Source: Gammaproteobacteria bacterium
GTDB taxonomy: Bacteria > Pseudomonadota > Gammaproteobacteria > SZUA-152
Reading direction: 5' to 3'
Assembly (NCBI GenBank): GCA_021647705.1
Contig: JAKIUF010000005.1
Coordinates: forward strand, 43,936 to 107,935
DNA length: 64,000 nucleotides
Positions within the stretch are counted from its first letter, which is position 1; each line of letters opens with the position of its first letter. Shown here in pieces: positions 3,500-45,720 of this stretch. Under the pieces are notes generated by a model that worked only from the letters and a program-made list of their open reading frames with translations, searched no databases and was not told the origin of the DNA. A program made the position numbers and the translations under genes.

Positions 3500-3530
3500 G
3501 GTTTTAGCCGCTCACTGCACGTATAATCCG
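3500..3530 (+). promoter_or_regulatory. Putative sigma70 promoter of the gcv operon (perfect TATAAT at 3522-3527)
   Basis: TATAAT lies about 20 nt upstream of the first riboswitch aptamer. The -35 element is weak (GGTTTT/TTTAGC region). Confidence 0.35.
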
Positions 3531-3545
3531 CAGTTCAATGGAATA

Positions 3546-3736
3546 TCACTGCGGGAGAGTGTGGTTCTCTGATTATTATTTGTCAGGGTAAAAAACCACC
3601 GCCGAAGGCGCAACCGCCCGGAATCGCTCAGGCAACCGGACCGCAGACCGACAATCGTTGACTCTGGAGAGAGACTGAAGCTACAGGCGTCAGTCCGCCG
3701 AAGGGGCTAAAGCTCTCAGGCACCACGGACAGAGGG
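3546..3736 (+). promoter_or_regulatory. Tandem glycine riboswitch (two aptamers) in the gcvT leader
   Basis: Aptamer 1: GCGGGAGAG...CACCGCCGAAGGCGCAACC...CTCAGGCAACCGGACCGCAG. Aptamer 2: CTCTGGAGAGAG...GTCCGCCGAAGGGGCTAAAGCTCTCAGGCACCACGGACAGAGG. Both carry the conserved GGAGAG / CCGAAGG / CTCAGGCA glycine-aptamer blocks. They sit immediately 5' of gcvT. Confidence 0.8.
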
Positions 3737-3799
3737 GTGGCAAAACAGCACAATTGCTGTTTGAAAACCCGTGTCCATAAAAACCAGAGGTCTACACGT

Positions 3800-4939
3800 A
3801 TGTCATCATCACCGTCAGCAACACTTTCGCCAGCACGCACCCCACTGTACGCGCAACATCTTGTCGCCGGGGCAAAAATGGTGGATTTTGCTGGCTGGAA
3901 AATGCCCATCCACTACGGCTCACAACTCGAAGAACATCATCAGGTGCGTAATGACGCAGGCATGTTTGATGTCTCCCACATGGTGGTGCTGGATCTCACG
4001 GGTAGCGGCATCACTGATTTTTTGCGTTATCTGCTAGCTAATGACGTGGCACGGATCCAAACTCCTGGCAAAGCACTGTATTCCTGTCTGCTTAACGAGC
4101 GCGGTGGCGTTATTGATGATCTCATCATCTATTTTATGGCTGAGGACAGGTACCGCATGGTGGTTAACGCCGCCACCCGCGACAAAGACCTAGCCTGGGT
4201 TCGTCAGCAAGCTTTAAACGCGAATAATAATAAAAAATGCAACGTGGAAATCCACGAGCGCGACGACCTGGCAATGATCGCCGTACAAGGTCCCAATGCG
4301 CGCGATAAAGCCCACGCCGCACTGGGTACAGACATCGATGCCGCCCGCGAACTCAAGCCCTTTTTTGCCGCAGATTGCAATGACAGCAAGGGCAACCTGT
4401 TTGTTGCCCGCACCGGTTATACTGGCGAAGATGGCTACGAAATCATCCTGCCCGCCGAACAGGCAGGTGCAACCTGGGAGGCACTACTGGCCTCCGGAGT
4501 CAAACCCATCGGTCTCGGTGCGCGTGACACCTTGCGACTGGAAGCCGGTATGAATCTGTACGGCCAGGATATGGATGAAGACATCAGCCCGCTGGAAGCC
4601 GGGCTCAGCTGGACAGTGGCCTTCACGCCGGAAGAGCGTGACTTCATCGGTCGCGCCGCTCTAACCCAACAAAAAACCGATGGTCCGGCAAACAAACTCG
4701 TTGGCCTGATCCTCGAAGATCGCGGCGTATTACGCGCCCACCAAAAAGTCATCACCGAACACGGCGAGGGCGAAACCACCAGCGGTAGTTTTTCCCCCAC
4801 CTTGGGTAAATCCATTGCCCTGGCCCGCGTACCCACTGCCGCAACTGAGCACTGCCAAGTAGAAATACGTGGTAAACAATTGGCCGCACGCATCGTAAAA
4901 TACCCCTTTGCCCGAAAGGGTAAAAGTCTGTTTGATTAA
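3800..4939 (+). CDS. gcvT: Glycine cleavage system T protein (aminomethyltransferase)
   Basis: N-terminus [41 protein letters not shown]... is typical of GcvT. Followed by gcvH and gcvP. The ATG at 3800 was chosen inside the longer tool ORF (3737). Confidence 0.9.
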
Positions 4940-5465: not shown

Positions 5466-6824
5466 ATGCCTTTTATTCCCCATACTGAAAATGACACTCG
5501 CACCATGCTCGACACCATCGGTGCCGATTCCATCGAAGACCTGTTTGATGAAATACCCGCTGAATTGCGTGCCCAACCCTTGAGCGAAGTCCCCGCAGGC
5601 CGAAACGAAATGGCCGTCTCCCGACTGCTACAGGCACGCGCGGCACAAGACATACAGGCGTTGTCATTTTTGGGGGCGGGTGCTTACGAACATCATATCC
5701 CTGCGGCAGTGTGGGAACTGACCACCCGTGGCGAATTCTACACCGCTTACACTCCCTATCAGGCCGAAGCCAGTCAGGGAACTTTGCAGTTATTGTATGA
5801 ATTCCAGACCATGATGACCGAACTCACCGCCATGGATGTCTCCAACGCTTCCTTGTACGACGGTGCCTCAGCACTGGCTGAAGCAGTATTGATGGCAGTA
5901 CGTGCCAATCGAAAATCCAAAAGCAAGCGTATTTTGATACCCACCACGGTAAATCCTACTTATCGCAGCGTGGTCAACACTATCGTGCGTCATCAGGGCA
6001 TCCAACTGGAATTAGTAAATTATGATACACAGAGCGGATACATCGACCCAGCCAGCCTGCCAACCGATCCCGGTGACATCACTGCACTGGTGATCCCACA
6101 ACCCAACTTCTTTGGCGCACTGGAAGATGTCGATGCTCTCACCGACTGGGCACAAGCCCACGGCGCACTGGTGATCGGCGTGGTCAACCCCACCGCCATG
6201 GCATTGATTACACCGCCCGGCGAATGGGGTAACGGTACAGGTGCCGATATTGTTTGTGGTGAAGGCCAACCGCTAGGCGCACCGTTGTCTTCCGGCGGCC
6301 CCTATTTTGGTTTTATGTGCTGTGCGCAAAAACATGTGCGGCAAATGCCTGGGCGTATCATTGGTCGCACCGACGATATCGAGGGAAAAACCGGTTATGT
6401 ACTGACACTGCAAGCCCGCGAGCAGCATATCCGCCGCTCCAAGGCCACTTCCAACATTTGCACCAACCAGGGACTACTGACCACAGCAGCCACTATCTAT
6501 TTGTCCTTAATGGGCCCGGAAGGATTACGCCAAACTGCCGAGCACAGCCACGCCAATACACACAAACTGGCAGAAAAACTGTGCGCGATTAAAGGTGTCG
6601 AAAAAATATTTAACCGCCCCTGTTTTCACGAAACTGTATTGCGTCTGCCTAAACCAGCCAATGAGATATTGAGCGCGCTGGATACACAGGGAGTGCTGGG
6701 TGGTTTTGATCTGTCTCAGACTTATCCTGAGCTGGGTAATGCCATCTTGGTCTGCGCGACAGAAACCAAAACCGACAATGATCTTGAGCAATACGCCACG
6801 GCACTGCGCAATGTTCTTGCATAA
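5466..6824 (+). CDS. gcvPA: Glycine dehydrogenase (decarboxylating) subunit 1
   Basis: [35 protein letters not shown]... is typical of GcvPA. 452 aa. Confidence 0.9.
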
Positions 6825-34929: not shown

Positions 34930-35230
34930 CGTAGGGTGGGCACGTTTTTTGTGCCCACGCGTGTACCAGCTCGGCCTGCATTAAACCAACTGTGATAAAA
35001 ATGTCTTGGCAGAAACAATTACCGGACGCTTTATATCAATAAACTCGCCATCAATTGCCACATTGTAAAATAGTCAAGACCAAAACAAGACACCCCTTAA
35101 AATGGTCGAGATTATACTGACTATGCTGACTGGGCCTGAATAAATGAAAATCCAACGCAAAGGCGCGAAAACGCAGAGGACGCAAAGAAAAGGGGGCGTA
35201 GGGTGGGCACGTTTTTTGTGCCCACGCGCA
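34930..35230. repeat. Pair of direct REP-like palindromic units CGTAGGGTGGGCACGTTTTTTGTGCCCACGCG (34930-34961 and 35197-35228)
   Basis: Identical 32-bp units, each a GTGGGCAC/GTGCCCAC hairpin with a GTAG head. They lie in the YyaL-rlmI intergenic space. Confidence 0.55.
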
Positions 35231-35354
35231 TACTGAATGAATCAGCTGAATCACAACAAACGTAACAGGATTAGATTGTAAGCTTGCCCACAGCTAGCGA
35301 TAATAGCACTTTCTCCCGCACGACAACTCGTGCAAAAAATAGGAATCACCCACC

Positions 35355-36554
35355 GTGAGCAAAACCCTCCCTCCCCTGCGTCTCAAAAAAAATGAAGAAC
35401 GTCGCCTCAAGGCAGGCCATTTATGGGTCTACAGCAACGAAATCGATATCGACAAAACGCCACTGAAAGATTTCTCCCCCGGCACAGCCGTCAGCATCGA
35501 AGATTCGCAGGGTCATGTGCTAGGCAATGCCTACGTCAATCCGCATTCACTGATCAGCGCACGGCTGATTAGTCGTGATACAAAATATGTACTGGACCAA
35601 TCACTGATAACCCACCGCCTGAACATTGCTCTCTCACTGCGCGAACAATGTTTCGCACAACCCTTTTATCGCCTGGTACACGGTGAAGGGGACAACCTGC
35701 CCGGACTGATAGTGGACCGCTTCGCGGACGTACTGGTGGTGCAAATCACCACTGCAGGCATGGAAATGCAAAAACAGGCCATCATCGCCGCGCTGGAAAA
35801 AACCCTCAAACCTGCGGCCATCGTATTGCGCAACGACAGCCCCTCCCGCAAAGCCGAAGAACTGGATAGCTACGTCGAAACCGCCAGCGGCAAGTTACCG
35901 GAATCAGTGCTACTGGAAGAAAACAACACCCGTTTTGAAATCGATGTACTCAGCGGTCAAAAAACCGGCTGGTTTTACGACCATCGCATGAACCGTGCGC
36001 GCATGCAGCATTACGTCAAAGACAAGCGGGTACTGGATGTCTTCAGCTACATCGGCGGCTGGGGGATTCAGGCGCTCACCGCCGGGGCCAACGAAGTGAT
36101 GTGTATTGATGCTTCAGCCAAAGCCGTTGATCGCATGCATCACAATGCCTGCCTGAACAACGTAGAAGATAAACTGGTGAGCGTAGAAGGCGACGCCTTC
36201 GAAGCACTAAAATCCCTGCGCCAGGAACGCGAACGTTTTGACGTAGTGATTATCGACCCACCCGCCTTCATCAAACGCAAAAAAGATTTCAAAGAAGGCC
36301 TCACCGCCTATCGACGCATTAATCAAATGGCCTTGCAGGTACTCAACAAAGGCGGCTATCTGATCAGCGCCTCCTGCTCGTTTCATCTCACACGCGCGCA
36401 ACTGCACGACACCATTTTAAAAGCCAGTCGTCATATTGATCGCAATGCGCAAATTATCGAGCAAGGTCACCAGGGGCCAGATCATCCGGTACACCCAGCC
36501 ATTGCGGAAACCGATTATTTAAAGGCATTTATCACCCGCATTTTGTCGAATTAA
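35355..36554 (+). CDS. rlmI: 23S rRNA m5C1962 methyltransferase (PUA plus class-I SAM MTase)
   Basis: MSKTLPPLRLKKNEERRLKAGHLWVYSNEID... matches the RlmI N-terminus. SAM-binding motif region present. GTG start. Confidence 0.85.
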   Translation: MSKTLPPLRLKKNEERRLKAGHLWVYSNEIDIDKTPLKDFSPGTAVSIEDSQGHVLGNAYVNPHSLISARLISRDTKYVLDQSLITHRLNIALSLREQCFAQPFYRLVHGEGDNLPGLIVDRFADVLVVQITTAGMEMQKQAIIAALEKTLKPAAIVLRNDSPSRKAEELDSYVETASGKLPESVLLEENNTRFEIDVLSGQKTGWFYDHRMNRARMQHYVKDKRVLDVFSYIGGWGIQALTAGANEVMCIDASAKAVDRMHHNACLNNVEDKLVSVEGDAFEALKSLRQERERFDVVIIDPPAFIKRKKDFKEGLTAYRRINQMALQVLNKGGYLISASCSFHLTRAQLHDTILKASRHIDRNAQIIEQGHQGPDHPVHPAIAETDYLKAFITRILSN

Positions 36555-36574
36555 TGAATTAAGTATTGCACCCT

Positions 36575-36960
36575 CTTGTGCATCACACTGTTGATCTGGA
36601 TATGATCCTTCCGATGCGTATGCCAAAAAACGCAATAAAGCAGAACGGTTCACCGGCATCTTCTTTGCCCATAGGAAGATGACAAGCTTATCGAAACTGA
36701 GTTAAGGCTCCTTCGGGAGCCTTTGTCATTCATAACGCTCTTAAAAACATAGCGCTATCCCCGTCAGCCAACAAGCCAAGTCGGGTAGGGTGGAACAAGC
36801 GTAGCGGTTCCACCAAACAGGATAAGGGACATATTCAAGGTTCGATTGCTATCGACGTCCACCTTGACTCACCGTTTGCTGGTGAGTTGTTGTTGAATAA
36901 GAGATTTTTTCTCCGACTTCAGGCAATCGGAGTTTTGTTGCAGAGTGTTGATTTTTTGTC
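36575..36960. repeat. Copy 1 of a ~300-390 bp structured repeat (UUCG-tetraloop hairpin GGCTCC-TTCG-GGAGCC, REP unit, two hairpins followed by T-runs)
   Basis: About 90% identical to 38320-38890, with a ~150-bp indel between the copies. Ends with CTCCGA-CTTCAGGCAA-TCGGAG-TTTTGTTG. Confidence 0.6.
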
Positions 36961-37029
36961 AGCGGTCGTAAGCTATAGAGGTGATTTGTTGTTCCGTAAT
37001 CGCCTGTTGGTGGAACCGCTGCGCTTGTT
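36783..37029. repeat. Inverted pair of REP-like units GTAGGGTGGAACAAGCGTAGCGGTTCCACC (36783-36815 forward, 36996-37028 reverse) flanking ~180 bp
   Basis: The two 30-bp units are reverse complements of each other with 1 mismatch. Each is itself a GGTGGAAC/GTTCCACC hairpin. A third forward copy lies at 38719-38751. Confidence 0.6.
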
Positions 37030-37524
37030 CCACCCTACGGGTTTACTCTGTGCTGAATAGAGAAAATCAAAAGGGATCAAGTATCATATTGACGATTTAT
37101 TTTAACCGCTAATTTAATGGAATTAATCTCATCCTTCATACGCAACTTCCACTTTGAATAGTTTAAGCATTTCTGAAGAAATAATTTTCTACCAACTAAC
37201 CGCTAATATGATACTTGACCTTCATTTTTTTATCACCCGCATTTTGTCGAACTAACGAATTAAGCAAAATCATCAAGTTAAAAATAGGTTGGCGGTGAGT
37301 TTGCGAACCCCAACGCTACCTCAGCATGCAGTTTAAGAGGCACTGGGAATTAGGTCGCATTTTCAATAAAATAAATTTTATGGGAATAGATAACATTCAT
37401 ATCTTTATCCTGTTTTTATAAAAAAGTGGCTTGCCCCTTGTGCCAAAAACAATCTATAAAACGGATGAATTAAGTATTGCGCTCTCTTATTTTGATAGAA
37501 AAATGGCTCATATGGTCAGCCGTT

Positions 37525-37926
37525 TTATATATTGAATAGCTGTATTGGGGTGTATTTTTTATAATGAGAAAAATCCTTATCCGTCGTGAATATTTCTGAT
37601 TTCAGTCGAAACGCAACCGCACAAATCAAAAAATCAACATGTGAACCTTGAACACCTTTTGACCGACAGGTATTCGAAAATGTTGCTGCCTGAACATAGT
37701 CACCGTCAATGATTTGCTCATTTTCAAAATAGCGTAATTTGCTATTTAATTTCTCAAACTTAGATTTGACGCTATAGCCCGACAAAACCTCCTGCCTGAT
37801 TGGACCAAGCATTACCACCCTTTGGTCTGAAATCAGGGTTTCAAGCTCCTTAACACAAGCCTCATATCCTTTTTTTTTGGATCTTAAAGCGTATGACCAT
37901 ATTGGCGTATCTACGATGACCTTCAA
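37525..37926 (-). CDS. vapC: PIN-domain toxin (VapC family)
   Basis: MKVIVDTPIW... with conserved acidic residues of the PIN fold. 133 aa. 4-bp overlap with the upstream antitoxin gene. Confidence 0.7.
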   Translation of the reverse strand: MKVIVDTPIWSYALRSKKKGYEACVKELETLISDQRVVMLGPIRQEVLSGYSVKSKFEKLNSKLRYFENEQIIDGDYVQAATFSNTCRSKGVQGSHVDFLICAVAFRLKSEIFTTDKDFSHYKKYTPIQLFNI

Positions 37927-38120
37927 TGCGCTCTGCCCTTTTTATAATCGTAATCAGCATCAGGATCCAGCTTCCCAAACAACTCTATAATTTCCAATTG
38001 CTTACGACGATTCACAAACTCTTTTAAAGCATAATTAACCGTATCTTTTTTAGTTTTTAACCCGCTGAGCAATAGAGCTTCTTCCAATAATTTGTCGTCA
38101 ATTGCTAAATTCGTTGCCAT
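37923..38120 (-). CDS. vapB: VapB-type antitoxin (small DNA-binding protein)
   Basis: 65-aa MATNLAIDDKLLEEALLLSGLKTKKDTVNYALKEFV... translationally coupled to the PIN gene. Confidence 0.5.
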   Translation of the reverse strand: MATNLAIDDKLLEEALLLSGLKTKKDTVNYALKEFVNRRKQLEIIELFGKLDPDADYDYKKGRAH

Positions 38121-38319
38121 TTTGCATCTCCTTTTTCTCACACAATAGGCGACACATAGCAGTGTGTCAACAACGAATCCTCACAGGGTACCGGTAAAAA
38201 ACCCAGGTACGGCTAACGCCATACTCAGTGCCCGCCCTGAAGGCGCATGCTTCCAATAATCTCCCGCTCAACAATGTTAATTTGAAGAACATCTGCGCCC
38301 GTGAGCAGCTTAAATCGGC

Positions 38320-38890
38320 GTTTCCTGAGCCACTTATACAACACACTGTTGATCTAGATATGGTCATTCCGATGCGTATACCAAAAAATGCAATAAAGCA
38401 GAATGGTTCATTGGCATCTTCTTTGCCCATAGGAAATTGACCATCCTCGGTTACCCAAATACTGCATCCTGGTGCTAAAAAAATGTACGGATAACCCCTC
38501 TCACGGGACATTAATCCGCTAGAAAAAACCGGTAACGGCATACGCCCCAGTCTTGCAATCAAGCAGAAATGTATTCAACAGTGAACAGTGCAGTCAGCCC
38601 GGCAAAGCGGTGACAAGCTTCTCGAAGCTGAGTTAAGGCTCCTTCGGGAGCCTTTGTCATTCATAACGCTCTTAAAAACATAGCGCTCCCCCCCCTCCGT
38701 CAGCCATCAAGACAAGTCGGGTAGGGTGGAACAAGCGTAGCGGTTCCACCAAACGGGATAAGAGACATATTCACGGTTCGATTGCTATCTACGTCCACCT
38801 TGACTCGCCGTTTGCTCGTGAGCTGTTGTTGAATAAGGGCTTTTTTCTCCGGCTTCAGGCAACCGGGGTTTTGTTCACTGCAACATAGAC
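38320..38890. repeat. Copy 2 of the ~300-390 bp structured repeat (carries an extra ~150-bp internal segment)
   Basis: Shares CACACTGTTGATCT...GCAATAAAGCAGAA... and ...CTGAGTTAAGGCTCCTTCGGGAGCCTTTGTCATTCATAACGCTCTTAAAAACATAGCGCT...GTCGGGTAGGGTGGAACAAGCGTAGCGGTTCCACC... with copy 1. Confidence 0.6.
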
Positions 38891-38945
38891 CATACACTGG
38901 CAGACAAAGAGATTGACAACTGATTAAGGCGGTAAACAAAAGAAA

Positions 38946-39057
38946 AATAGGGGTCAAGTTTATTGTATAAAATCAAAAAATATTTTCGTACTCAATTTTT
39001 GCTGGGAAGGGTATGGGTAGCTAATGTCATTATACAATAGGCTTGACCCCTTCACTC
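38946..39057. repeat. 110-bp TIR element copy 1 (MITE-like; ends AATAGGGGTCAAG...CTTGACCCC)
   Basis: Near-identical to 40661-40770 and 42629-42757. Terminal inverted repeats GGGGTCAAGTTTATTGTATA / TATACAATAGGCTTGACCCC. Confidence 0.6.
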
Positions 39058-39233
39058 TTACGAGACTAAATCACTTCAACTTTCGTTTACGGCCTGCTGC
39101 CTTGCGGCACGTCGTGCTTAACATTTAGGATTACTCCCGCCTGCCCGACGCTTGCTACCCGGTGGCTGACCTGCCTTGCCGGGGCGGGTTTCTCACCCGC
39201 TGGAATAATCGACCTGGCTCGGCCGCACACCCC

Positions 39234-39725
39234 TTAACTTTTTTTGTTGTCTGAAAAATTCTCATTTCTAATAATTTGTTTTAACTTCAGATAATACCCA
39301 TTTGAGGTCTCTACCCAAACGCCGTCCCATTCACCGCCTTTGTTTGTCCATCGACTAGCAAGGAAAAATTCAACAGAATGACCGACATCTACACCCTTGT
39401 TTTTTAAGTCTGCACGCAAACTTAAAAATGCATCTTGTGATTTTATCGTCATGATTTTTTCAGGTTTATTAGTAAACTCGCTTTTTGTATAAATTATTCG
39501 CCAAATAAATATGCTACTGACTCCCCTGTCAGCCTCTTCACGATACAACAACTTAGCATCTGCTGGAAATTCCAGGCCGCTTATTTTTTCTATATGCTCA
39601 ACCGGTTCAGACAATACCTGATCCGGTACTTCTAATAGGCGCGAAACAGAAAAAACACCCAGTACAAAGAGAAAACTCAGTACTATCACGAATAGTAGGA
39701 TCAGCTTTTTCACATTACCTACCAC
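39234..39725 (-). CDS. Hypothetical membrane-anchored protein (163 aa) in the integron cassette region
   Basis: N-terminal TM helix LILLFVIVLSFLFVLGVF. 11-bp overlap with the upstream ORF 39715-40398. Confidence 0.5.
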   Translation of the reverse strand: MVGNVKKLILLFVIVLSFLFVLGVFSVSRLLEVPDQVLSEPVEHIEKISGLEFPADAKLLYREEADRGVSSIFIWRIIYTKSEFTNKPEKIMTIKSQDAFLSLRADLKNKGVDVGHSVEFFLASRWTNKGGEWDGVWVETSNGYYLKLKQIIRNENFSDNKKS

Positions 39726-40398
39726 TGGATATGGGCTCCATTTTGGATAAAACGGTTTTATCGCCCCATTTATGCTGACTTTTAATTTGACCGCACAAAT
39801 TAAATTCTTGAGCTAAACCTTGTCGATGGAACAACCCCATGAATTCGTCGGTAATGTCTACATTGAAAATTGTTACCGACTTGCCTTTATCCCAATTGTA
39901 TCTATCGACACAATTGAAAACGAAATCCATTTGATATCCTTTACCGCCCACACCGTCATGTTCCACAATAAGGTTCGCTTTCCCCCATATTGAATATCCA
40001 CCAACCGCAAAAAACCAGTTTTTACTTTCAATTTGTCTGTTATACTCTTGCACCATTCGAGAAGCTACGATATTGTATGCTCCGGGCGGCAAAGTCTCAG
40101 CGAAAACCTTTGCTTCAGCTGCTTCCCTAGTATGTAGCAATTTAGCACTTTCCACTTCATCAACCATCCCCTGTAAATCAAACTCGTACTCTTTTCCCGA
40201 ATTCAATAAGTAGTGTAGCATGTGCTTGGCGGCATCATCACCAACTAGAACAGTTGCATGCACCATATAATTCAATATTGCGACTTTTAACGCGATCATT
40301 TTAGCTTCAGGTTTCTCACTATTCCAGAGTCCTGCGCCGGGATCATATTTTACGACTGGGTCAGTCGTTCCAATTATAAAATTTGGCATCACTCTCAT
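39715..40398 (-). CDS. Hypothetical protein (227 aa) in the integron cassette region
   Basis: Uninterrupted ORF, minus strand like all cassette ORFs. No recognisable motif. Confidence 0.5.
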   Translation of the reverse strand: MRVMPNFIIGTTDPVVKYDPGAGLWNSEKPEAKMIALKVAILNYMVHATVLVGDDAAKHMLHYLLNSGKEYEFDLQGMVDEVESAKLLHTREAAEAKVFAETLPPGAYNIVASRMVQEYNRQIESKNWFFAVGGYSIWGKANLIVEHDGVGGKGYQMDFVFNCVDRYNWDKGKSVTIFNVDITDEFMGLFHRQGLAQEFNLCGQIKSQHKWGDKTVLSKMEPISSGR

Positions 40399-40660
40399 CC
40401 CTTAATTTTTTCAATCTAAATTTCCTCCACCCTATAATGACAAAATCATACTGTCAAACGAACGAAAGGCTTGTACTGTGCTTTGTTTTAACACTGATGA
40501 AAGAAGGAGAGACCTTTCGATTTCTGCTCAGCTCAATCAGTGCCACTCTGCAAATTGTCCGCGTTAATCACTTTTGTTAGCCTTTTATTGGCACCCACAA
40601 CAATTTCGCTCCAATATGCTTATGGATTAAAACAGATAGTAATCTATGTTTATAAAATAG

Positions 40661-40770
40661 AATAGGGGTCAAGTTTATTGTATAATATCAAAAAATATTT
40701 TCGTACTCAATTTTTGTTGGGAAGGGTATGGGTAGCTAATGTCATTATACAATAGGCTTGACCCTTTTAC
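40661..40770. repeat. 110-bp TIR element copy 2
   Basis: 97% identical to copies 1 and 3. Abuts the truncated 3' end of the IS91 N-terminal fragment. Confidence 0.6.
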
Positions 40771-41046
40771 TTTCAGGTCATTGAGCGCCAAGGGTATTGT
40801 GAAGATGGCGTGGTGATGTGGGCAGTCCAGCAATACCCTTTGGGTGTTAATCAGCCATTCTTCGGTTGGCATGCCTCGACATTGGGGGCAGGCGCAGTGT
40901 TTACAGGAGTTGTACCAGATGCCGTTGAGGTGGTTGTTTTCACAGTATTGCGCATGTCCGCCCAGGGCGGCGGTACGACAGGTGGAGAGTTTGTCCAGGG
41001 CTTTCAGATGATGTAGCGGTAAGCTGACTTTTTGTCCGCTTGTCAT
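40675..41046 (-). mobile_element. IS91-family transposase, N-terminal zinc-binding fragment (pseudogene; reading frame runs into the 110-bp element)
   Basis: LGGHAQYCENNHLNGIWYNSCKHCACPQCRG...HHHAIFTIP matches the N-terminal Zn-binding and first conserved block of IS91/Y2 transposases. No HUH/Tyr catalytic region follows. Confidence 0.6.
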
Positions 41047-41103
41047 GTGCTACCAAAGCACAAACGAAACGTTGCGGAGGCCTGTCCGGCTCTACTGCGC
41101 CTG

Positions 41104-41781
41104 TTATGCATTGGCTTTTATACGTGACAACATTGAAATGTATGGGTTTGCTCTGATAGTTATCAATTTTTTAAACGTAGCTTCAATACTTTTATCATTC
41201 TCAGGCATTCGTTTTAAAAGACTAGAATTGCTACCCTCATAATACTGAAAAATAGAAATGTATGTTTCATACCACATTACCCACTCAGCCTCTTTGGGAA
41301 CCCACCCAACTAAGTCCAAATATTCTTTTTGCAGATGTAAAGATTCTTCACTCACACCATGCGCCTTAAAAGGGTATATATACAAGAATCTAATAAACTC
41401 ATCCAGCAACGCACCAGCCCATGTCGTAATCTCTAGATCGCTAACTGCCTTTTCTACTCTTTTGTCTAGAATATCTTTTTGATAATGGTAAACAGCATTC
41501 CTACAGCGCTTTATTGTTAGAACATAGTCTTCATATACTGATAGAAGCTCATTTATTGCTTTATCTGACTCTTTTAGGCTATACCAGCCTTCTACAACAA
41601 CGTACAAAGATGCCAACCATTGACTACTGTATATAAAATATTTTACCCCACTTTCTTCGTTTTTAATTTTTCGCTCAAAATTATGGCGTTCAATATCAGA
41701 ACGATAAATGTATTTACCCCACGAAGCCACCTCAAGTATTTTTTCTGGCATAGGTATCTTCCAATGCATAACGATAGCCAT
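41104..41781 (-). CDS. Hypothetical cassette protein (225 aa)
   Basis: Long minus-strand ORF. Its stop overlaps a GTTATGC core-like motif at 41100-41106. Confidence 0.5.
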   Translation of the reverse strand: MAIVMHWKIPMPEKILEVASWGKYIYRSDIERHNFERKIKNEESGVKYFIYSSQWLASLYVVVEGWYSLKESDKAINELLSVYEDYVLTIKRCRNAVYHYQKDILDKRVEKAVSDLEITTWAGALLDEFIRFLYIYPFKAHGVSEESLHLQKEYLDLVGWVPKEAEWVMWYETYISIFQYYEGSNSSLLKRMPENDKSIEATFKKLITIRANPYISMLSRIKANA

Positions 41782-41832
41782 AAGCCGCGCGGCTTTTTTG
41801 CGTCGGCTTGATGGCCTGGTTATGCCAGAAAT

Positions 41833-42297
41833 TCAAAATAGTTGCCCAACTATATAATGCCAACTCATCAGGCTCGCAATAACAATTAATGCTGGAGCAT
41901 GAGGTATTAGTACAGGTGCCAAAAACATGTTAGATAATATTTCTTTGTACCATGACTGAGAAGAGGAAAATACCTCAAACCAACTTGTATAAGCTTGTAA
42001 TGGAAATATTTCTTCTGATTCTCCTCTGAAGTATTCCTCAATTGCAGATATCCTTGGTCCTGAGCAATACTGAAAGAATTTCCACAACGCCTCCATGACC
42101 CAGAGAAAAAGTGCGGCGAGGCCCGCTAGCACCATAATTGACATTGACTTTGATTGAAATGCCAAGCCGATACCGCCAAGCGCGACAGTTATAGACCACC
42201 CCTTAATAAGCAACGCTCTTCTATCAAAATCTTCATAAGCATTTTGCAGTAACAGATACTCATCCTTAAGAAGATTATCTAAGTGCTCTTTTTCCAT
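41833..42297 (-). CDS. Hypothetical membrane protein (154 aa) cassette
   Basis: Two or three predicted TM helices. Its ATG is preceded (minus strand) by GTTATGACCAATTAGGAATCTATGA, i.e. a core-like GTTATGA next to an attI-like sequence. Confidence 0.5.
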   Translation of the reverse strand: MEKEHLDNLLKDEYLLLQNAYEDFDRRALLIKGWSITVALGGIGLAFQSKSMSIMVLAGLAALFLWVMEALWKFFQYCSGPRISAIEEYFRGESEEIFPLQAYTSWFEVFSSSQSWYKEILSNMFLAPVLIPHAPALIVIASLMSWHYIVGQLF

Positions 42298-42490
42298 TCA
42301 TAGATTCCTAATTGGTCATAACTTATTAGTATTAGGCATATTTGCCCGGTTATCCGGCAGTATTACACGAAGAATCAGGCACATTTGCCTGCTAATCACT
42401 GAAAACCGGTCAACTTGCCCTGATATGTTGATATTGGGGTGGTATTTAGGCATATTTACCCGCTATTTTTCTCAAACTCTATGCTTCGGA
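42298..42490. other. Second, degenerate attI-like region (duplicate of 44659-44739 with a ~100-bp insertion)
   Basis: AACTTATTAGTATTAGGCATATTTGCCCG at 42322 and GGTATTTAGGCATATTTACCCGCTATTTTTCTCAAACTCTATGCTTCGGAAATCACC at 42440 match the sequence immediately upstream of intI at 44676-44739. Confidence 0.55.
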
Positions 42491-42491
42491 A

Positions 42492-42628
42492 ATCACCATG
42501 TCAACTCAGAATTCTGGAAAAGATTTATTGACAGAAATGCGCGATTTAATGCGACGGTTGCATTATTCCATCCATACTGAACGCGCTTATTGCGACTGGG
42601 TTGCGCGCTTTATTCGTTTTCATCAGAG
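42492..42628 (+). pseudogene. Integron integrase 5' fragment (first ~43 codons of an intI paralogue), truncated by the 110-bp element
   Basis: [43 protein letters not shown] is 95% identical to the N-terminus of the intact intI at 44740. The frame then runs into the repeat. Confidence 0.7.
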
Positions 42629-42757
42629 AATAGGGGTCAAGTTTATTGTACAATATCAAAAAATATTTTCGTACTCAATTTTTGTTGGGAAGGGTATGGG
42701 TAGCTAATGTCATTATACAATAGGCTTGCCCCCTTCACTCAGCCCCCTTCACTCAAG
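42629..42757. repeat. 110-bp TIR element copy 3 (with a 12-bp tandem duplication CCCCCTTCACTC at its right end)
   Basis: Near-identical to copies 1 and 2. Lies between the intI fragment and the IS91 C-terminal fragment. Confidence 0.6.
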
Positions 42758-43207
42758 CACTATCCGGAAAAATGGGTCGTTGATTGTAAATCGGTCGGTT
42801 CCGGTGAACAGGCGCTGATTTATCTGGGGCGTTATCTCTACCGGGGTGTTATTCGGGAGAAGGATATTGTGAGCTGTGAAAATCGGAAGGTGACTTTTCG
42901 TTACCAAAACAGCAAGACAAAGCAGTGGGATTTCAAAACGGTTTCGGGCGAACAATTCTTGTGGCTGATTCTCCAACACGTACTCCCGAGACGCTTTCGA
43001 CGCACACGCAATTTTGGTTTCCTGCATCCCAACAGTAAACGGTTGATTCAGGTGATTCAGCTTTTGTTTGGGCTCGATATAAACCGGACTCTGGCATGGA
43101 TGAAAGAAAGACCCAAAATGATTTGTCGGTGTTGTGGTGGAAAGATGACGATCATCAAAACCCGGCTTTCTCCCATCCGTCTGCTGGCGGCTTTGGTTCC
43201 AACTTGA
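42758..43207 (+). mobile_element. IS91-family transposase, C-terminal fragment (pseudogene)
   Basis: EKWVVDCKSVGSGEQALIYLGRYLYRGVIREKDIV...CRCCGGKMTIIKT matches the C-terminal conserved block and terminal Cys cluster of IS91-family transposases. The N-terminal two-thirds are missing. Confidence 0.6.
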
Positions 43208-43540
43208 TGATGGAGAATAATGACCCGTTATGTAACCTCACCTCATAAAGCAGAAAAAATTTCAGTGGTACGTGCTGAGGGGTGAACTTGCCTGCGATTA
43301 GGGAAAAACTGACAACTATCCTTCTGATACAAGAAAAAATTGCCGCAATGGTAATATAAGGGCTTAAGTTCAAGGCTTGCGGAATATTATTCGCCTCGAA
43401 TGGCAGCGAACTCAAAAAGCTATCTTCATGGTCAATCTATACTCCAGCCACCGGGCTTGTCCAACAAACCGGTTCAGATCGCGGTTCGTTCCTCACGCGA
43501 TCTAACCTAATTCGTTATGTTGATTTTGTTTTAAACATAT

Positions 43541-43990
43541 TTAATTTAGATACCTAATACCTACGATAAATGCTGCTAGTGAACCAAGCTGAATTACACA
43601 ATAATTGATCATGAATTCTACTCGATGCTCCTCTCTTTGCATTAACCTACAAAACGGCCCAAGAAAATACCCTGTCGATTTCATTTGGTAAGCACTAAAC
43701 GATGCCAAAGCAGACAGCATGAACCAAAATATTGCACCACCAAAATCACCTACATCGTCTGCAACAATTATGTAGAAGATGGAGATTACAATAAGTCCGT
43801 AAACTGGTCTCATTAATTTTTTGTTAATTGTTTTTTCTAAATTATTTTTCCTGACATATTCACGCTGCTGATTATCGCTTACTTCCAATATTGAGTTATA
43901 TTTTTCTAACGCAATACCGCAATTGGCACACTGCCAATCTGGAACAGCATTTTTTTCGTTTTTAATATACTTGCACTTAGGGCATTTCAT
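43541..43990 (-). CDS. Integron cassette 2: membrane protein with N-terminal zinc-ribbon (CPKC...CANC), 149 aa
   Basis: MKCPKCKYIKNEKNAVPDWQCANCG, then 2-3 TM helices. Its ATG lies ~33 nt downstream (minus strand) of the attC1 crossover site. Confidence 0.55.
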   Translation of the reverse strand: MKCPKCKYIKNEKNAVPDWQCANCGIALEKYNSILEVSDNQQREYVRKNNLEKTINKKLMRPVYGLIVISIFYIIVADDVGDFGGAIFWFMLSALASFSAYQMKSTGYFLGPFCRLMQREEHRVEFMINYCVIQLGSLAAFIVGIRYLN

Positions 43991-44019
43991 AATTAACTAT
44001 TACCGATCTACAATTTTTT

Positions 44020-44136
44020 ACATAACGCCAACATCAGCGGTTGCTGAAAGCGACGGTTTTTTGTGTGACAATGAGCGACAGCGAATAACACAAAAAAACG
44101 GCGCTTTTGGCGATCCGCTGGATGTTCTGGTTAGGC
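44020..44136 (-). other. attC site of cassette 1 (117 bp)
   Basis: On the minus strand: R'' GCCTAAC overlaps the stop of ORF 44140-44658; the site ends in R' GTTATGT. Imperfect internal palindrome (CCGCTGGATGTTCTGG... / ...CCAACATCAGCGG) with extrahelical bases. Confidence 0.6.
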
Positions 44137-44139
44137 GAT

Positions 44140-44658
44140 TTACGTATATTCCGCAGGCGGCAGATCACCGCACACCATTGCTGGTTTAAAAATAAACTTT
44201 GTCTCATATCGTTTTTTTCCAAAAATTCTTCTGTGTAGCGAGAACAACCAATTGAGCATTGATTTAGGTGCATTGTATTTAGCGGTAATCTGAAATGAAT
44301 CAGATTTAATACCTAAAGACTTCCCTCCACCATCAGGATATTCGTTTAAATTCTGTTCATCGAACCTAAAAAGGTGGATCATCTGTCCAGGTGCCATTTG
44401 AGGTATTACTGTTTCCATAATTTCTCCAAGGCTTTCCCTTGGCTTATTTCTTTTTAATCCTCCAGATACTTCTAACTCGATATCCTCAGCTCTAACACTT
44501 CCAATATTTACAATACTAAATTGAATGAAAATATCTTGTTCAGGGCTGAATCTATTTCTTAACTCATAATATATTTCAAGAACAGGTTTATTGTGATTGG
44601 ATATTATTTGTAATCCAACTCTCATCATTCCGGCGACAGTTGATCCTGCGACTTCCAT
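44140..44658 (-). CDS. Integron cassette 1: hypothetical protein (172 aa)
   Basis: ATG is 14 nt downstream (minus strand) of the attI core GTTAGGC. No recognisable domain. Confidence 0.55.
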   Translation of the reverse strand: MEVAGSTVAGMMRVGLQIISNHNKPVLEIYYELRNRFSPEQDIFIQFSIVNIGSVRAEDIELEVSGGLKRNKPRESLGEIMETVIPQMAPGQMIHLFRFDEQNLNEYPDGGGKSLGIKSDSFQITAKYNAPKSMLNWLFSLHRRIFGKKRYETKFIFKPAMVCGDLPPAEYT

Positions 44659-44739
44659 ATTTTTTATCCTCGCCTAACTTATTAGTATTAGGCATATTTA
44701 CCCGCTATTTTTCTCAAACTCTATGCTTCGGAAATCACC
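44659..44739. other. attI recombination site of the integron (core GTTAGGC on the minus strand at 44672-44678)
   Basis: Lies between intI and the first cassette. Contains the TATTAGGCATATTTACCCG repeat, also present twice in the degenerate copy at 42298-42490. Confidence 0.55.
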
Positions 44740-45720
44740 ATGTCAACTCAGAATTCTGGAAAAGATTTATTGACAGAAATGCGCGATTTGATGCGGCGTT
44801 TGCATTATTCCATCCATACTGAACGCGCTTATTGCGACTGGGCTGCGCGTTTTGTTCGTTTTCATCAGATGAAGGCGCGGGATGCACTTTTTGTGGATGC
44901 AGAAAAAAATGTGGAGGATTTTTTGACGCATTTGGCGGTACAGGAGGCTGTAGCGGCTTCGACGCAGAACCAGGCTTTCAATGCGTTGGTCTTCCTGTAT
45001 AAGCGGGTACTGCTACAACCTCTGGAAAATGTGTCGGCAACCCGTTCGCGTAGAGAACCACGAATTCCGGTGGTGTTGACGCGAGAGGAGGTGAAGCAGG
45101 TATTGACTTTGCTGGAAGGAACAGCGGAGTTGGTGGTAAAGCTGTTGTACGGTTGTGGTTTACGGATTACCGAGGCGGTGCGTTTGCGGGTGCAGGATAT
45201 CGATTATGGGTACAAGCAGGTCACTGTGCGTAATGGTAAGGGTAATAAGGATCGAGTGACACCGTTCCCCGCCATTCTGGAGTCTCTGCTAAAGAATCAT
45301 CTGGAGCGGGTGATGGCCGTTCATGAGCGGGATCTTGAGGATGGGTTTGGCGCGGTTTATTTGCCTTATGCTCTGGCTCGCAAGTATCCAAATGCGGAGA
45401 AGGAGTGGAATTGGCAGTATGTTTTTCCCAGCAGGAAGTTGTCGGAAGACCCTCGGAGTGGGATGACGCGTCGGCATCATGTGGATCAGTCGGTGGTGAA
45501 TAAGGCCATTCGGCAGGCGGTGCGCACAGCGGAAATCACGAAAAAAGTGAGTGCGCATACCTTTCGTCACAGCTTTGCGACCCATTTGCTGCAACGGGGC
45601 ACAGATATTCGCACTATTCAATCGCTGTTGGGGCATCGGGATGTGCAGACAACCATGATTTATACTCATGTATTAAAGCAGGGTGGAGAGGGTGTGGTCA
45701 GTCCTTTGGAGGATTTGTAA
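44740..45720 (+). CDS. intI: Integron integrase (tyrosine recombinase, IntI family)
   Basis: N-terminal [22 protein letters not shown]. IntI-specific additional domain [21 protein letters not shown]...[11 protein letters not shown]. Catalytic box [12 protein letters not shown]...[16 protein letters not shown]. Divergent from a minus-strand cassette array. Confidence 0.9.

Follow-up and report, generated by a model that had tools for sequence, protein, structure and literature searches.

What is the sequence that occurs twice downstream of rlmI in this stretch of gammaproteobacterial DNA (contig JAKIUF010000005.1; the whole 64,000-nt stretch that was analyzed is referred to here as the window)? 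An earlier note on this DNA had proposed a duplicated, structured non-coding element, either a small RNA (sRNA) family or an RNA borne on an integron cassette. We found that each copy is a mosaic and not a discrete RNA gene, and we consider it likely that the two copies represent a fairly recent segmental duplication of genomic debris in the interval that separates rlmI from the distal end of a chromosomal integron. From left to right, the mosaic consists of a transposase gene fragment, about 170 nt that occur in copy 2 only, the tail of an RNA gene, and a palindrome resembling repetitive extragenic palindromic (REP) sequences together with two terminator-like hairpins.

Alignment of the two plus-strand copies (copy 1, 36570-36939; copy 2, 38328-38875) confirmed the duplication, with identities of 88-95% and BLAST E-values of 1e-35 to 1e-105 that place the repeat beyond chance; BLAST found no third copy in the window. 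The shared sequence falls into three blocks. Block A (36572-36683 versus 38330-38441) is 87.5% identical, with 14 differences in 112 positions; block B (36680-36762 versus 38611-38693) is 95% identical, with 4 differences in 83 positions and a 60-nt run that is free of differences; and block C (36761-36939 versus 38697-38875) is 92% identical, with 14 differences in 179 positions. Copy 2 additionally holds about 170 bases (38442-38610) that are absent from copy 1. The homology ends sharply on the right at 36939 and 38875, which is 15-20 nt earlier than the copies had been drawn in the earlier note. Copy 1 directly follows rlmI (35355-36554, plus strand), as the note had stated; copy 2 is located upstream of vapB, and its strand is the opposite of that of vapBC (37525-38141, minus strand). 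A promoter-like site of its own and a hairpin resembling a terminator precede vapBC.

The left block is a relic of a transposase gene from an insertion sequence (IS) of the IS110/IS1111 family. In copy 2, a 160-nt internal fragment on the plus strand (38256-38414, about codons 156-209 of 347) is retained, of which only the part from about 38328 is common to copy 1. A plus-strand open reading frame (ORF) at 38228-38440 matched one database protein (P0001), and 38276-38414 shares 80% identity with the DNA of that protein's locus (L037; L numbers designate the compared loci). When P0001 was used in a full HMMER search, 76 relatives were returned, the long ones of which have DEDD_Tnp_IS110 and Transposase_20 domains. 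Using tblastn (E=2e-11), we aligned NICAREQLKSAFPEPLIQHTVDLDM and, past a 1-nt deletion after ..DLDMVI that shifts the frame, DAYTKKCNKAEWFIG at 38288-38415, and blastn gave 81% identity between 38256-38414 and an IS at positions 2097-2256 of L055. The copy 1 fragment (36570-36656, plus strand) was identified in the same two ways: tblastn places PLVHHTVDLDM at 36572-36604, blastn gives 77.5% identity to positions 2169-2256 of the L055 IS, and a CYCTT microhomology marks the junction of the fragment with the rlmI 3' flank. With about 53 codons remaining and the frame shifted, no intact transposase gene is present. The earlier note had named a degraded protein gene as a finding that would speak against its proposal, and tblastn, HMMER and blastn identify the left third as one. 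We also considered block A as a decayed PemK toxin gene, based on a resemblance by eye of RIPKNAIKQ to KIPRNSMPQ; tblastn and nhmmer gave no support, and the block is transposase sequence.

In IS1111-type elements, a non-coding region downstream of the transposase gene yields a guide RNA, and some of these elements target attC sites or REP sequences (PMC11187229). The IS1111/IS110 elements, including the IS1111-attC group (ISPst6, ISKpn4), have a counterpart in the left block, which codes for a portion of a DEDD/Transposase_20 transposase, and their attC/REP targeting (PMC11187229) fits the window's setting of integron and REP sequences. The region downstream of the fragment might thus be an IS non-coding region encoding a seekRNA or bridge RNA, and in full-length relatives the transposase gene is followed by a non-coding region of 491 nt. 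The full IS length of ~1617 nt was defined from six near-identical copies (99.7-100%; L057-L062, ENA ERZ28763718), which are also useful for defining the presumed guide RNA. The window, however, keeps only 160 of these ~1617 nt, all of them coding, and blastn found no match there to the IS ends or the IS non-coding region, though full-length relatives, when compared with one another across the entire IS, show 74-75% identity; moreover, homologues of block B occur without an IS110 gene nearby. Because the window matches no IS end or non-coding region, we rejected a guide RNA as the explanation, which we regard as extremely improbable.

The same bases could alternatively encode a type I toxin-antitoxin system, in which the minus-strand hydrophobic peptide MGKEDAGEPFCFIAFFGIRIGRIISRSTV (36670 down to 36581) would be accompanied by an antisense RNA. 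Its frame is open in both copies, with about 4 synonymous and 3 non-synonymous changes by our count, but there is no Shine-Dalgarno sequence before the ATG, the stop is not conserved (the copy 2 frame runs into a 131-codon ORF without a family match), and the bases are explained by the plus-strand transposase frame with its database homologues. Of the explanations weighed here, this is the one that we find hardest to credit.

The central block derives from the 3' end of a gene for a toxin-associated RNA, the parent RNA, which is ~135 nt long and consists of three helices (P1, P2, and P3) and an intrinsic terminator. In copy 1 (36675-36756, plus strand), the last ~60 nt of the RNA gene and a conserved trailer of ~20 nt are present, retaining the P3 loop GAUGACAAG, the P3 3' arm, and the terminator (nhmmer with a toxin+RNA profile, E=8e-16; 30.8 bits with model R1). 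Copy 2 (38586-38682, plus strand) holds the last ~80 nt and the conserved trailer, retaining the P2 3' arm, a weakened P3, and the terminator (E=8e-22; 59.3 bits); its homology begins sharply at CAGTGCAG, and it matches L011, L007, L013, L034, and L035. These two segments are the only ones in the window to which the profile aligns. With model R1, full-length members score 86-160 bits, whereas loci that share only the hairpin and are otherwise unrelated score 16-30 bits.

The UUCG hairpin (GGCUCC-UUCG-GGAGCC) is the terminator hairpin of this RNA family. It is located at 36704-36723 in copy 1 (AAGGCTCC-TTCG-GGAGCCTT, then TTGTCATTC; plus strand, -13.8 kcal/mol) and at 38635-38654 in copy 2 (plus strand), and the two are identical, in agreement with the perfect conservation reported earlier; the family terminator, AAGGCUCC-N4-GGAGCCUU followed by UUGUCAU, is present with the same sequence in each copy. 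Together with the 60-80 nt that precede it, the hairpin belongs to a genuine and conserved structured RNA family, as the earlier note had suspected, but the copies are truncated and not intact members. Rfam 15, the database that the note had suggested consulting, gave no match to 36000-39000 at gathering thresholds and assigned the region to no family; at E up to 5, there was only a chance-level match to anti-hemB (16 bits versus a threshold of 49.5). ARAGORN found no tRNA or transfer-messenger RNA gene over 35000-45000.

Truncation has removed the 5' part of the RNA gene. P1, the linker CAUUCGAGACU, and P2 with its AAAGGUCCGCCCA loop are absent from both copies, as judged from the nhmmer start points, and forced alignment to model R1 gave mismatched pairs upstream of 38586 and 36675. 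Both arms of P3 are kept in copy 2, with 9 of 11 pairs by hand alignment, yet the minimum-energy fold is a different structure (-11.1 kcal/mol versus -18.2 kcal/mol for the family), and only the loop and 3' arm of P3 are left in copy 1; the copies thus break off at different points of the RNA gene. No promoter-like site was found on the plus strand in or just upstream of either copy, and no toxin gene was found in the window by tblastn (best E 0.67, at another site). Because promoter, P1, and P2 are missing, and in copy 1 half of P3 as well, the parent RNA cannot be produced from either copy.

These observations bear directly on whether the copies are functional sRNAs, either a shortened toxin-associated RNA with a new 5' part or an rlmI 3' untranslated region (UTR) RNA that ends at the UUCG terminator. 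Such a function would agree with block B being the best conserved, with its intact terminator hairpin (-13.8 kcal/mol), with the 9 of 11 hand-aligned P3 pairs in copy 2, with the position of copy 1 within the rlmI 3' flank, and with one compensatory change in a hairpin of the right block, hairpin 3. It is contradicted by the missing promoter, the loss of P1, CAUUCGAGACU, and P2 with its AAAGGUCCGCCCA loop, the differing break points, and a 5' part that is a frameshifted transposase fragment; in addition, neither strand is favored in folding (z-scores of -2.5 and -2.65), and a second hairpin of the right block, hairpin 2, is lost in copy 2. We consider functional sRNAs unlikely.

The parent RNA itself is a conserved structured sRNA that is apparently undescribed and has no Rfam match. 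We identified 13 homologues (L007, L008, L011, L013, L025, L034, L035, L038, L039, L041, L042, L046, and L049), and neither homologous nor viral loci matched Rfam. A pattern scan of one genome per species returned real homologues only in four gammaproteobacterial genomes or metagenome-assembled genomes, and a metagenome scan added two further homologues. Across the 13 full-length members, 96.5% of pair cells are standard, and compensatory changes occur in 20 of 35 pairs; none of 500 shuffles reached the observed pairing values and slid controls were far lower (RNAalifold and pair counts), in an alignment that was fitted to the model and thus favors structure. An independent MAFFT alignment of 9 sequences showed 13 covarying pairs. 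By direct reading of the sequences, a sigma-70 promoter (TTGAAA/TTGAGA-17-TATATT) is conserved ~7 nt before the RNA 5' end and is present in L008, L011, L013, L034, L035, L038, and L039. A full-length RNA occurs in Spiribacter halobius CP086615.1 (L042, 5372-5508, minus strand, 109 bits). A distant version (L063, 1577-1694; 23.7 bits) on the betaproteobacterial Polaromonas sp. H8N plasmid pH8NP1 has compensatory changes in P1 and a similar terminator and follows a 46%-identical PemK/MazF toxin gene. The RNA core, comprising P1, CAUUCGAGACU, and P2 with its AAAGGUCCGCCCA loop, was also found in 12 viral contigs from IMG/VR (L043-L054), with variable 3' parts and without a toxin gene (for example, L049 2941-3078, minus strand, and L046 2721-2859, plus strand). 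ORFs beside the RNA core resemble terminase subunits by eye in several of these contigs, and a tRNA gene is near in two.

The genomic context of the parent RNA points to a possible function. The RNA lies 30-95 nt behind a PemK/MazF-like gene of 143-145 aa (Pfam PF02452; 'YifN, PemK superfamily' in the source annotation) in L011, L013, L025, L034, L035, L038, L039, and L041, and among the 10 toxin loci examined in the sampled genomes and metagenomes, 8 have the RNA directly downstream of a solitary toxin gene. The modules are located at L035 5476-6088, L013 5481-6116, L011 7572-7968, L038 3001-3652, L039 3001-3634, L041 3001-3643, and L025 6394-6981, and a further one is in L034; in L035, the toxin of 145 aa is encoded at 5476-5913 and the RNA at 5953-6088. 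No conserved protein partner (antitoxin) was found at the toxin-RNA loci, and the conserved loops of the RNA contain ACA. From its sequence context, the parent RNA is a candidate RNA antitoxin of the solitary PemK/MazF-like toxin. A DNA similarity search of E. coli genomes found no toxin-RNA module, and the literature on yifN, or on PemK with an RNA antitoxin, yielded nothing relevant. If the RNA does neutralize the toxin, this would be a new toxin-antitoxin arrangement, type III-like with a MazF-fold toxin. Type III (ToxI/ToxN) systems are similar in that the parent RNA is structured, bounded by promoter and terminator, and tightly linked to a toxin gene of endoribonuclease type (PemK/MazF fold). 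ToxI is a tandem-repeat array upstream of its toxin; the parent RNA, in contrast, is single, non-repetitive, and downstream of the toxin, and the window copies have no toxin gene. According to a fuller proposal, which we put forward tentatively and would not favor, the central block is the remnant of an undescribed family of structured RNAs that inhibit a solitary PemK/MazF-fold toxin, either as an RNA antitoxin or as a pseudo-substrate. Under this proposal, the window copies would mark the site of a former module or, less likely, still serve as orphan 3' domains, and the toxin-free phage copies of the RNA core could be antitoxin mimics.

The right block contains a REP-like palindrome, at 36785-36816 in copy 1 (GTAGGGTGGAAC..GTTCCACC) and at 38721-38752 in copy 2, in both cases on the plus strand. 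The palindrome belongs, as a variant, to the GTAGGGTGG-hairpin repeats of this genome, and the copy 1 palindrome has an inverted copy at 37007-37038; five palindromes of the GTAGGGTGG type occur in the window versus 0.28 expected by chance. REP-type repeats of the sequence CGTAGGGTGGGCACGTTTTTTGTGCCCACGCG are also present in intergenic positions upstream of rlmI (34931-34961 and 35198-35230), the palindrome in the duplicated unit being a variant with a different stem. Two terminator-like hairpins follow on the plus strand. Hairpin 2 is CTCACC-GTTTGCT-GGTGAG in copy 1 (36868-36886), followed by TTGTTGTTG, with a folding energy of -11.9 kcal/mol, and is decayed in copy 2 (38804-38822), where A:U has become G:U and C:G has become C:C (-4.3 kcal/mol), a loss that the earlier note had not mentioned. 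Hairpin 3 is CTCCGA-N10-TCGGAG in copy 1 (36911-36932), followed by TTTTGTTG (-6.9 kcal/mol); in copy 2 (38847-38868), A:U is replaced by G:C, a compensatory change, and U:A by U:G (-7.9 kcal/mol). Together with the UUCG hairpin, all three plus-strand hairpins show by eye a GC-rich stem and then a U-rich tract, with energies from -13.8 to -4.3 kcal/mol. These features suggest that the copies act at most as transcription stops on the plus strand. In copy 1, as many as three terminators in tandem would be positioned 150-380 nt beyond the stop codon of rlmI, and copy 2 would halt transcripts entering the cassette array in the antisense direction. The present role of the copies is most likely none, or plus-strand termination.

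Given the position of the unit, where an integron array ends, we also weighed whether it is an ORF-less cassette, or whether block C is an attC site with a conserved folded DNA strand. The gene at 44740-45720 encodes the integron integrase (TIGR02249, 447 bits versus a cut-off of 265), cassette-type genes lie on the minus strand from the integrase towards rlmI, and clear attC-like sites are recognizable by eye at about 44135-44025, 43510-43450, and 41843-41776. On the minus strand of copy 1, an imperfect AGCAAAC...GTTGGCT (36880-36766), whose arms are partly complementary, ranked second-best in an attC scan (-14.8 kcal/mol), but in copy 2 the GTT of this site is GAT (substitution at 36771 versus 38707). 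Block C, moreover, folds as several local hairpins rather than as a single long imperfect one, with a DNA-fold z-score of -0.16 for copy 2, whereas two clear array attC sites are single hairpins with z-scores of -4.4 and -6.8, and no attC-like site was found on the other side of either copy. The cassette boundaries implied by the term 'cassette-borne' in the earlier note could thus not be shown, and we consider a cassette or attC origin very unlikely. Cassette-borne sRNAs do exist, for example sRNA-Xcc1. The window unit resembles these and ORF-less cassettes in being a non-coding stretch in or beside a chromosomal integron array and differs from them in having no attC boundaries, an orientation opposite to the cassette genes, and no Rfam match at E up to 5.

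Heavy rearrangement marks the distal half of the array, which contains miniature inverted-repeat transposable element (MITE)-like repeats, IS91 fragments, a duplicate of the intI 5' end with attI, and the 5' end of a group II intron. Three MITE-like repeats of 124 nt that are 90-93% identical (38933-39056, 40648-40771, and 42616-42739) have 22-bp terminal inverted repeats (AGGGGTCAAGTTTATTGTATAA) and abut truncated IS91 fragments and the intI 5' duplicate, and a 150-nt element with similar termini (GGGATCAAGT) follows copy 1 at 37073-37222. Such surroundings, rich in mobile DNA (MITE-like repeats and pieces of IS91 elements and of a group II intron) and with the two copies 1.4 kb apart, together with the sharp right boundary of both copies, raise the possibility that the copies are two insertions of a small non-autonomous mobile element. 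The unit, however, is not flanked by terminal inverted repeats or a target duplication, and the left boundary of copy 1 falls inside sequence that continues leftwards in copy 2. In addition to the lack of a third copy in the window, DNA similarity searches of plasmid and phage collections gave no match to the element, and in pattern scans of genomes and metagenomes the block B motif was accompanied by the remainder of the unit only in contigs from this organism. We therefore regard insertion of a mobile element as distinctly unlikely. Exact-protein look-ups with RlmI and VapC as a route to close relatives returned only this genome and short contigs of the same organism.

Three observations instead fit a segmental duplication and not transposition: the rlmI 3' end is also duplicated, the IS fragment extends ~70 nt further left in copy 2, and the junctions are at microhomologies. 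Specifically, the last 36 nt of rlmI recur at 37229-37264 (plus strand, 94% identical to 36528-36563), and 37465-37488 repeats the 24 nt that follow the rlmI stop. In the scenario that we favor, an ancestral patch, best kept in copy 2, would have joined an internal fragment of an IS110/IS1111 transposase gene with the ~170 nt that only copy 2 now has, the 3' end of an sRNA gene with its intrinsic terminator, the REP-like palindrome, and the two hairpin-plus-U-tract motifs. Copy 1 would be a derivative in which 170 internal bases were deleted between TGAC microhomologies, which are present at the edges of the 38442-38610 deletion, and its left end would be an illegitimate junction inside the transposase fragment at the CYCTT microhomology. 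The order of events that we infer is tandem segmental duplication followed by deletions. Integron-adjacent hotspots with intrinsic terminators and relics of sRNA genes or IS elements are comparable: like the window, they have GC-rich hairpins and U-rich tracts on one strand, and IS and RNA-gene fragments without intact function amid MITE-like, IS91, and group II intron pieces. The window differs from such relics in that its parent RNA gene is absent from Rfam.

Several observations weigh against interpreting the repeat as debris. Block B has diverged by 4.8%, versus 12.5% for block A and 7.8% for block C, and this low divergence could reflect selection or gene conversion; by our rough estimate, a 60-nt run without differences has a chance expectation of about 15% at such divergence. 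The right block offers a further point, as the earlier note had read its hairpins as covarying. The compensatory change in hairpin 3 is real, and at least one compensatory double change in 12 stem pairs has a chance P of ~0.03 in a simulation with 14 substitutions placed at random in block C, for which the hairpins were chosen after the fact from two sequences only. The covariation evidence is weak because it consists of two sequences and one event in hairpins picked post hoc and because hairpin 2 has decayed in copy 2; the hairpin 3 change is compatible with mild selection for a terminator. A consensus terminator scan called none of the three plus-strand hairpins; we think that its criteria miss one hairpin for its 10-nt loop and another for too few T residues after the stem. 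Read-through from rlmI could place copy 1 in a 3' UTR that gives a processed RNA. Two parts of the mosaic gave no matches in the comparisons made: block C had no homologue in searches that included the plasmid and phage collections and a viral scan, and the stretch at 38415-38585 (plus strand) in copy 2 matched neither the non-coding region of the IS nor the toxin gene nor the RNA's 5' half.

On balance, a debris origin of the repeat remains the explanation that we favor, with at most a terminator role, and the repeat should not be annotated as an sRNA gene or an integron cassette. The useful by-product of the analysis is the parent RNA family, which has a well-supported structure and its own promoter and terminator and is absent from Rfam.

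Additional rearrangements were observed around the two copies. The second copy of the rlmI end is split by ~200 nt between 8-bp direct repeats GAATTAAG (36528-36577 versus 37229-37264 and 37465-37488), and the right end of this ~200-nt insert and the end of vapC form a 19-bp inverted repeat (37450-37468 and 37516-37534) that is possibly the attC of a vapBC cassette. Within the array, there is a second copy of the attI region together with the initial ~130 nt of intI (42319-42627 versus 44675-44869, 97% identity), which gives a second attI-like junction (GTTATGA) before the cassette at 41833-42297. The two IS91-family transposase fragments (40675-41046, minus strand, and 42707-43207, plus strand) are in opposite orientations, one being a zinc-binding N-terminal part and the other a Y2_Tnp C-terminal part.

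Group II introns were encountered both in the window and beside the parent RNA. In S. halobius (L042, 3514-5508), a group II intron with a reverse-transcriptase gene (3514-4740, minus strand) lies immediately downstream of the RNA terminator, a position that fits the homing of class C introns behind terminators. In the window, the intron 5' end (element 39081-39222, minus strand; Rfam RF02003, 54 bits, match at 39081-39202) has no reverse-transcriptase gene and is cut off by a MITE-like repeat. The RF02003 match prompted us to consider copy 2 as the 3' part of this intron; no domain V/VI model matched, and the MITE-like repeat lies between the two. The window intron is on the same strand as the cassette genes, while attC-type group IIC introns are usually on the opposite strand (PMC3001079). 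Far from these features, a tandem glycine riboswitch with two aptamers (59.8 and 48.7 bits) is located at 3542-3742 (plus strand), upstream of an ORF at 3737-4939.

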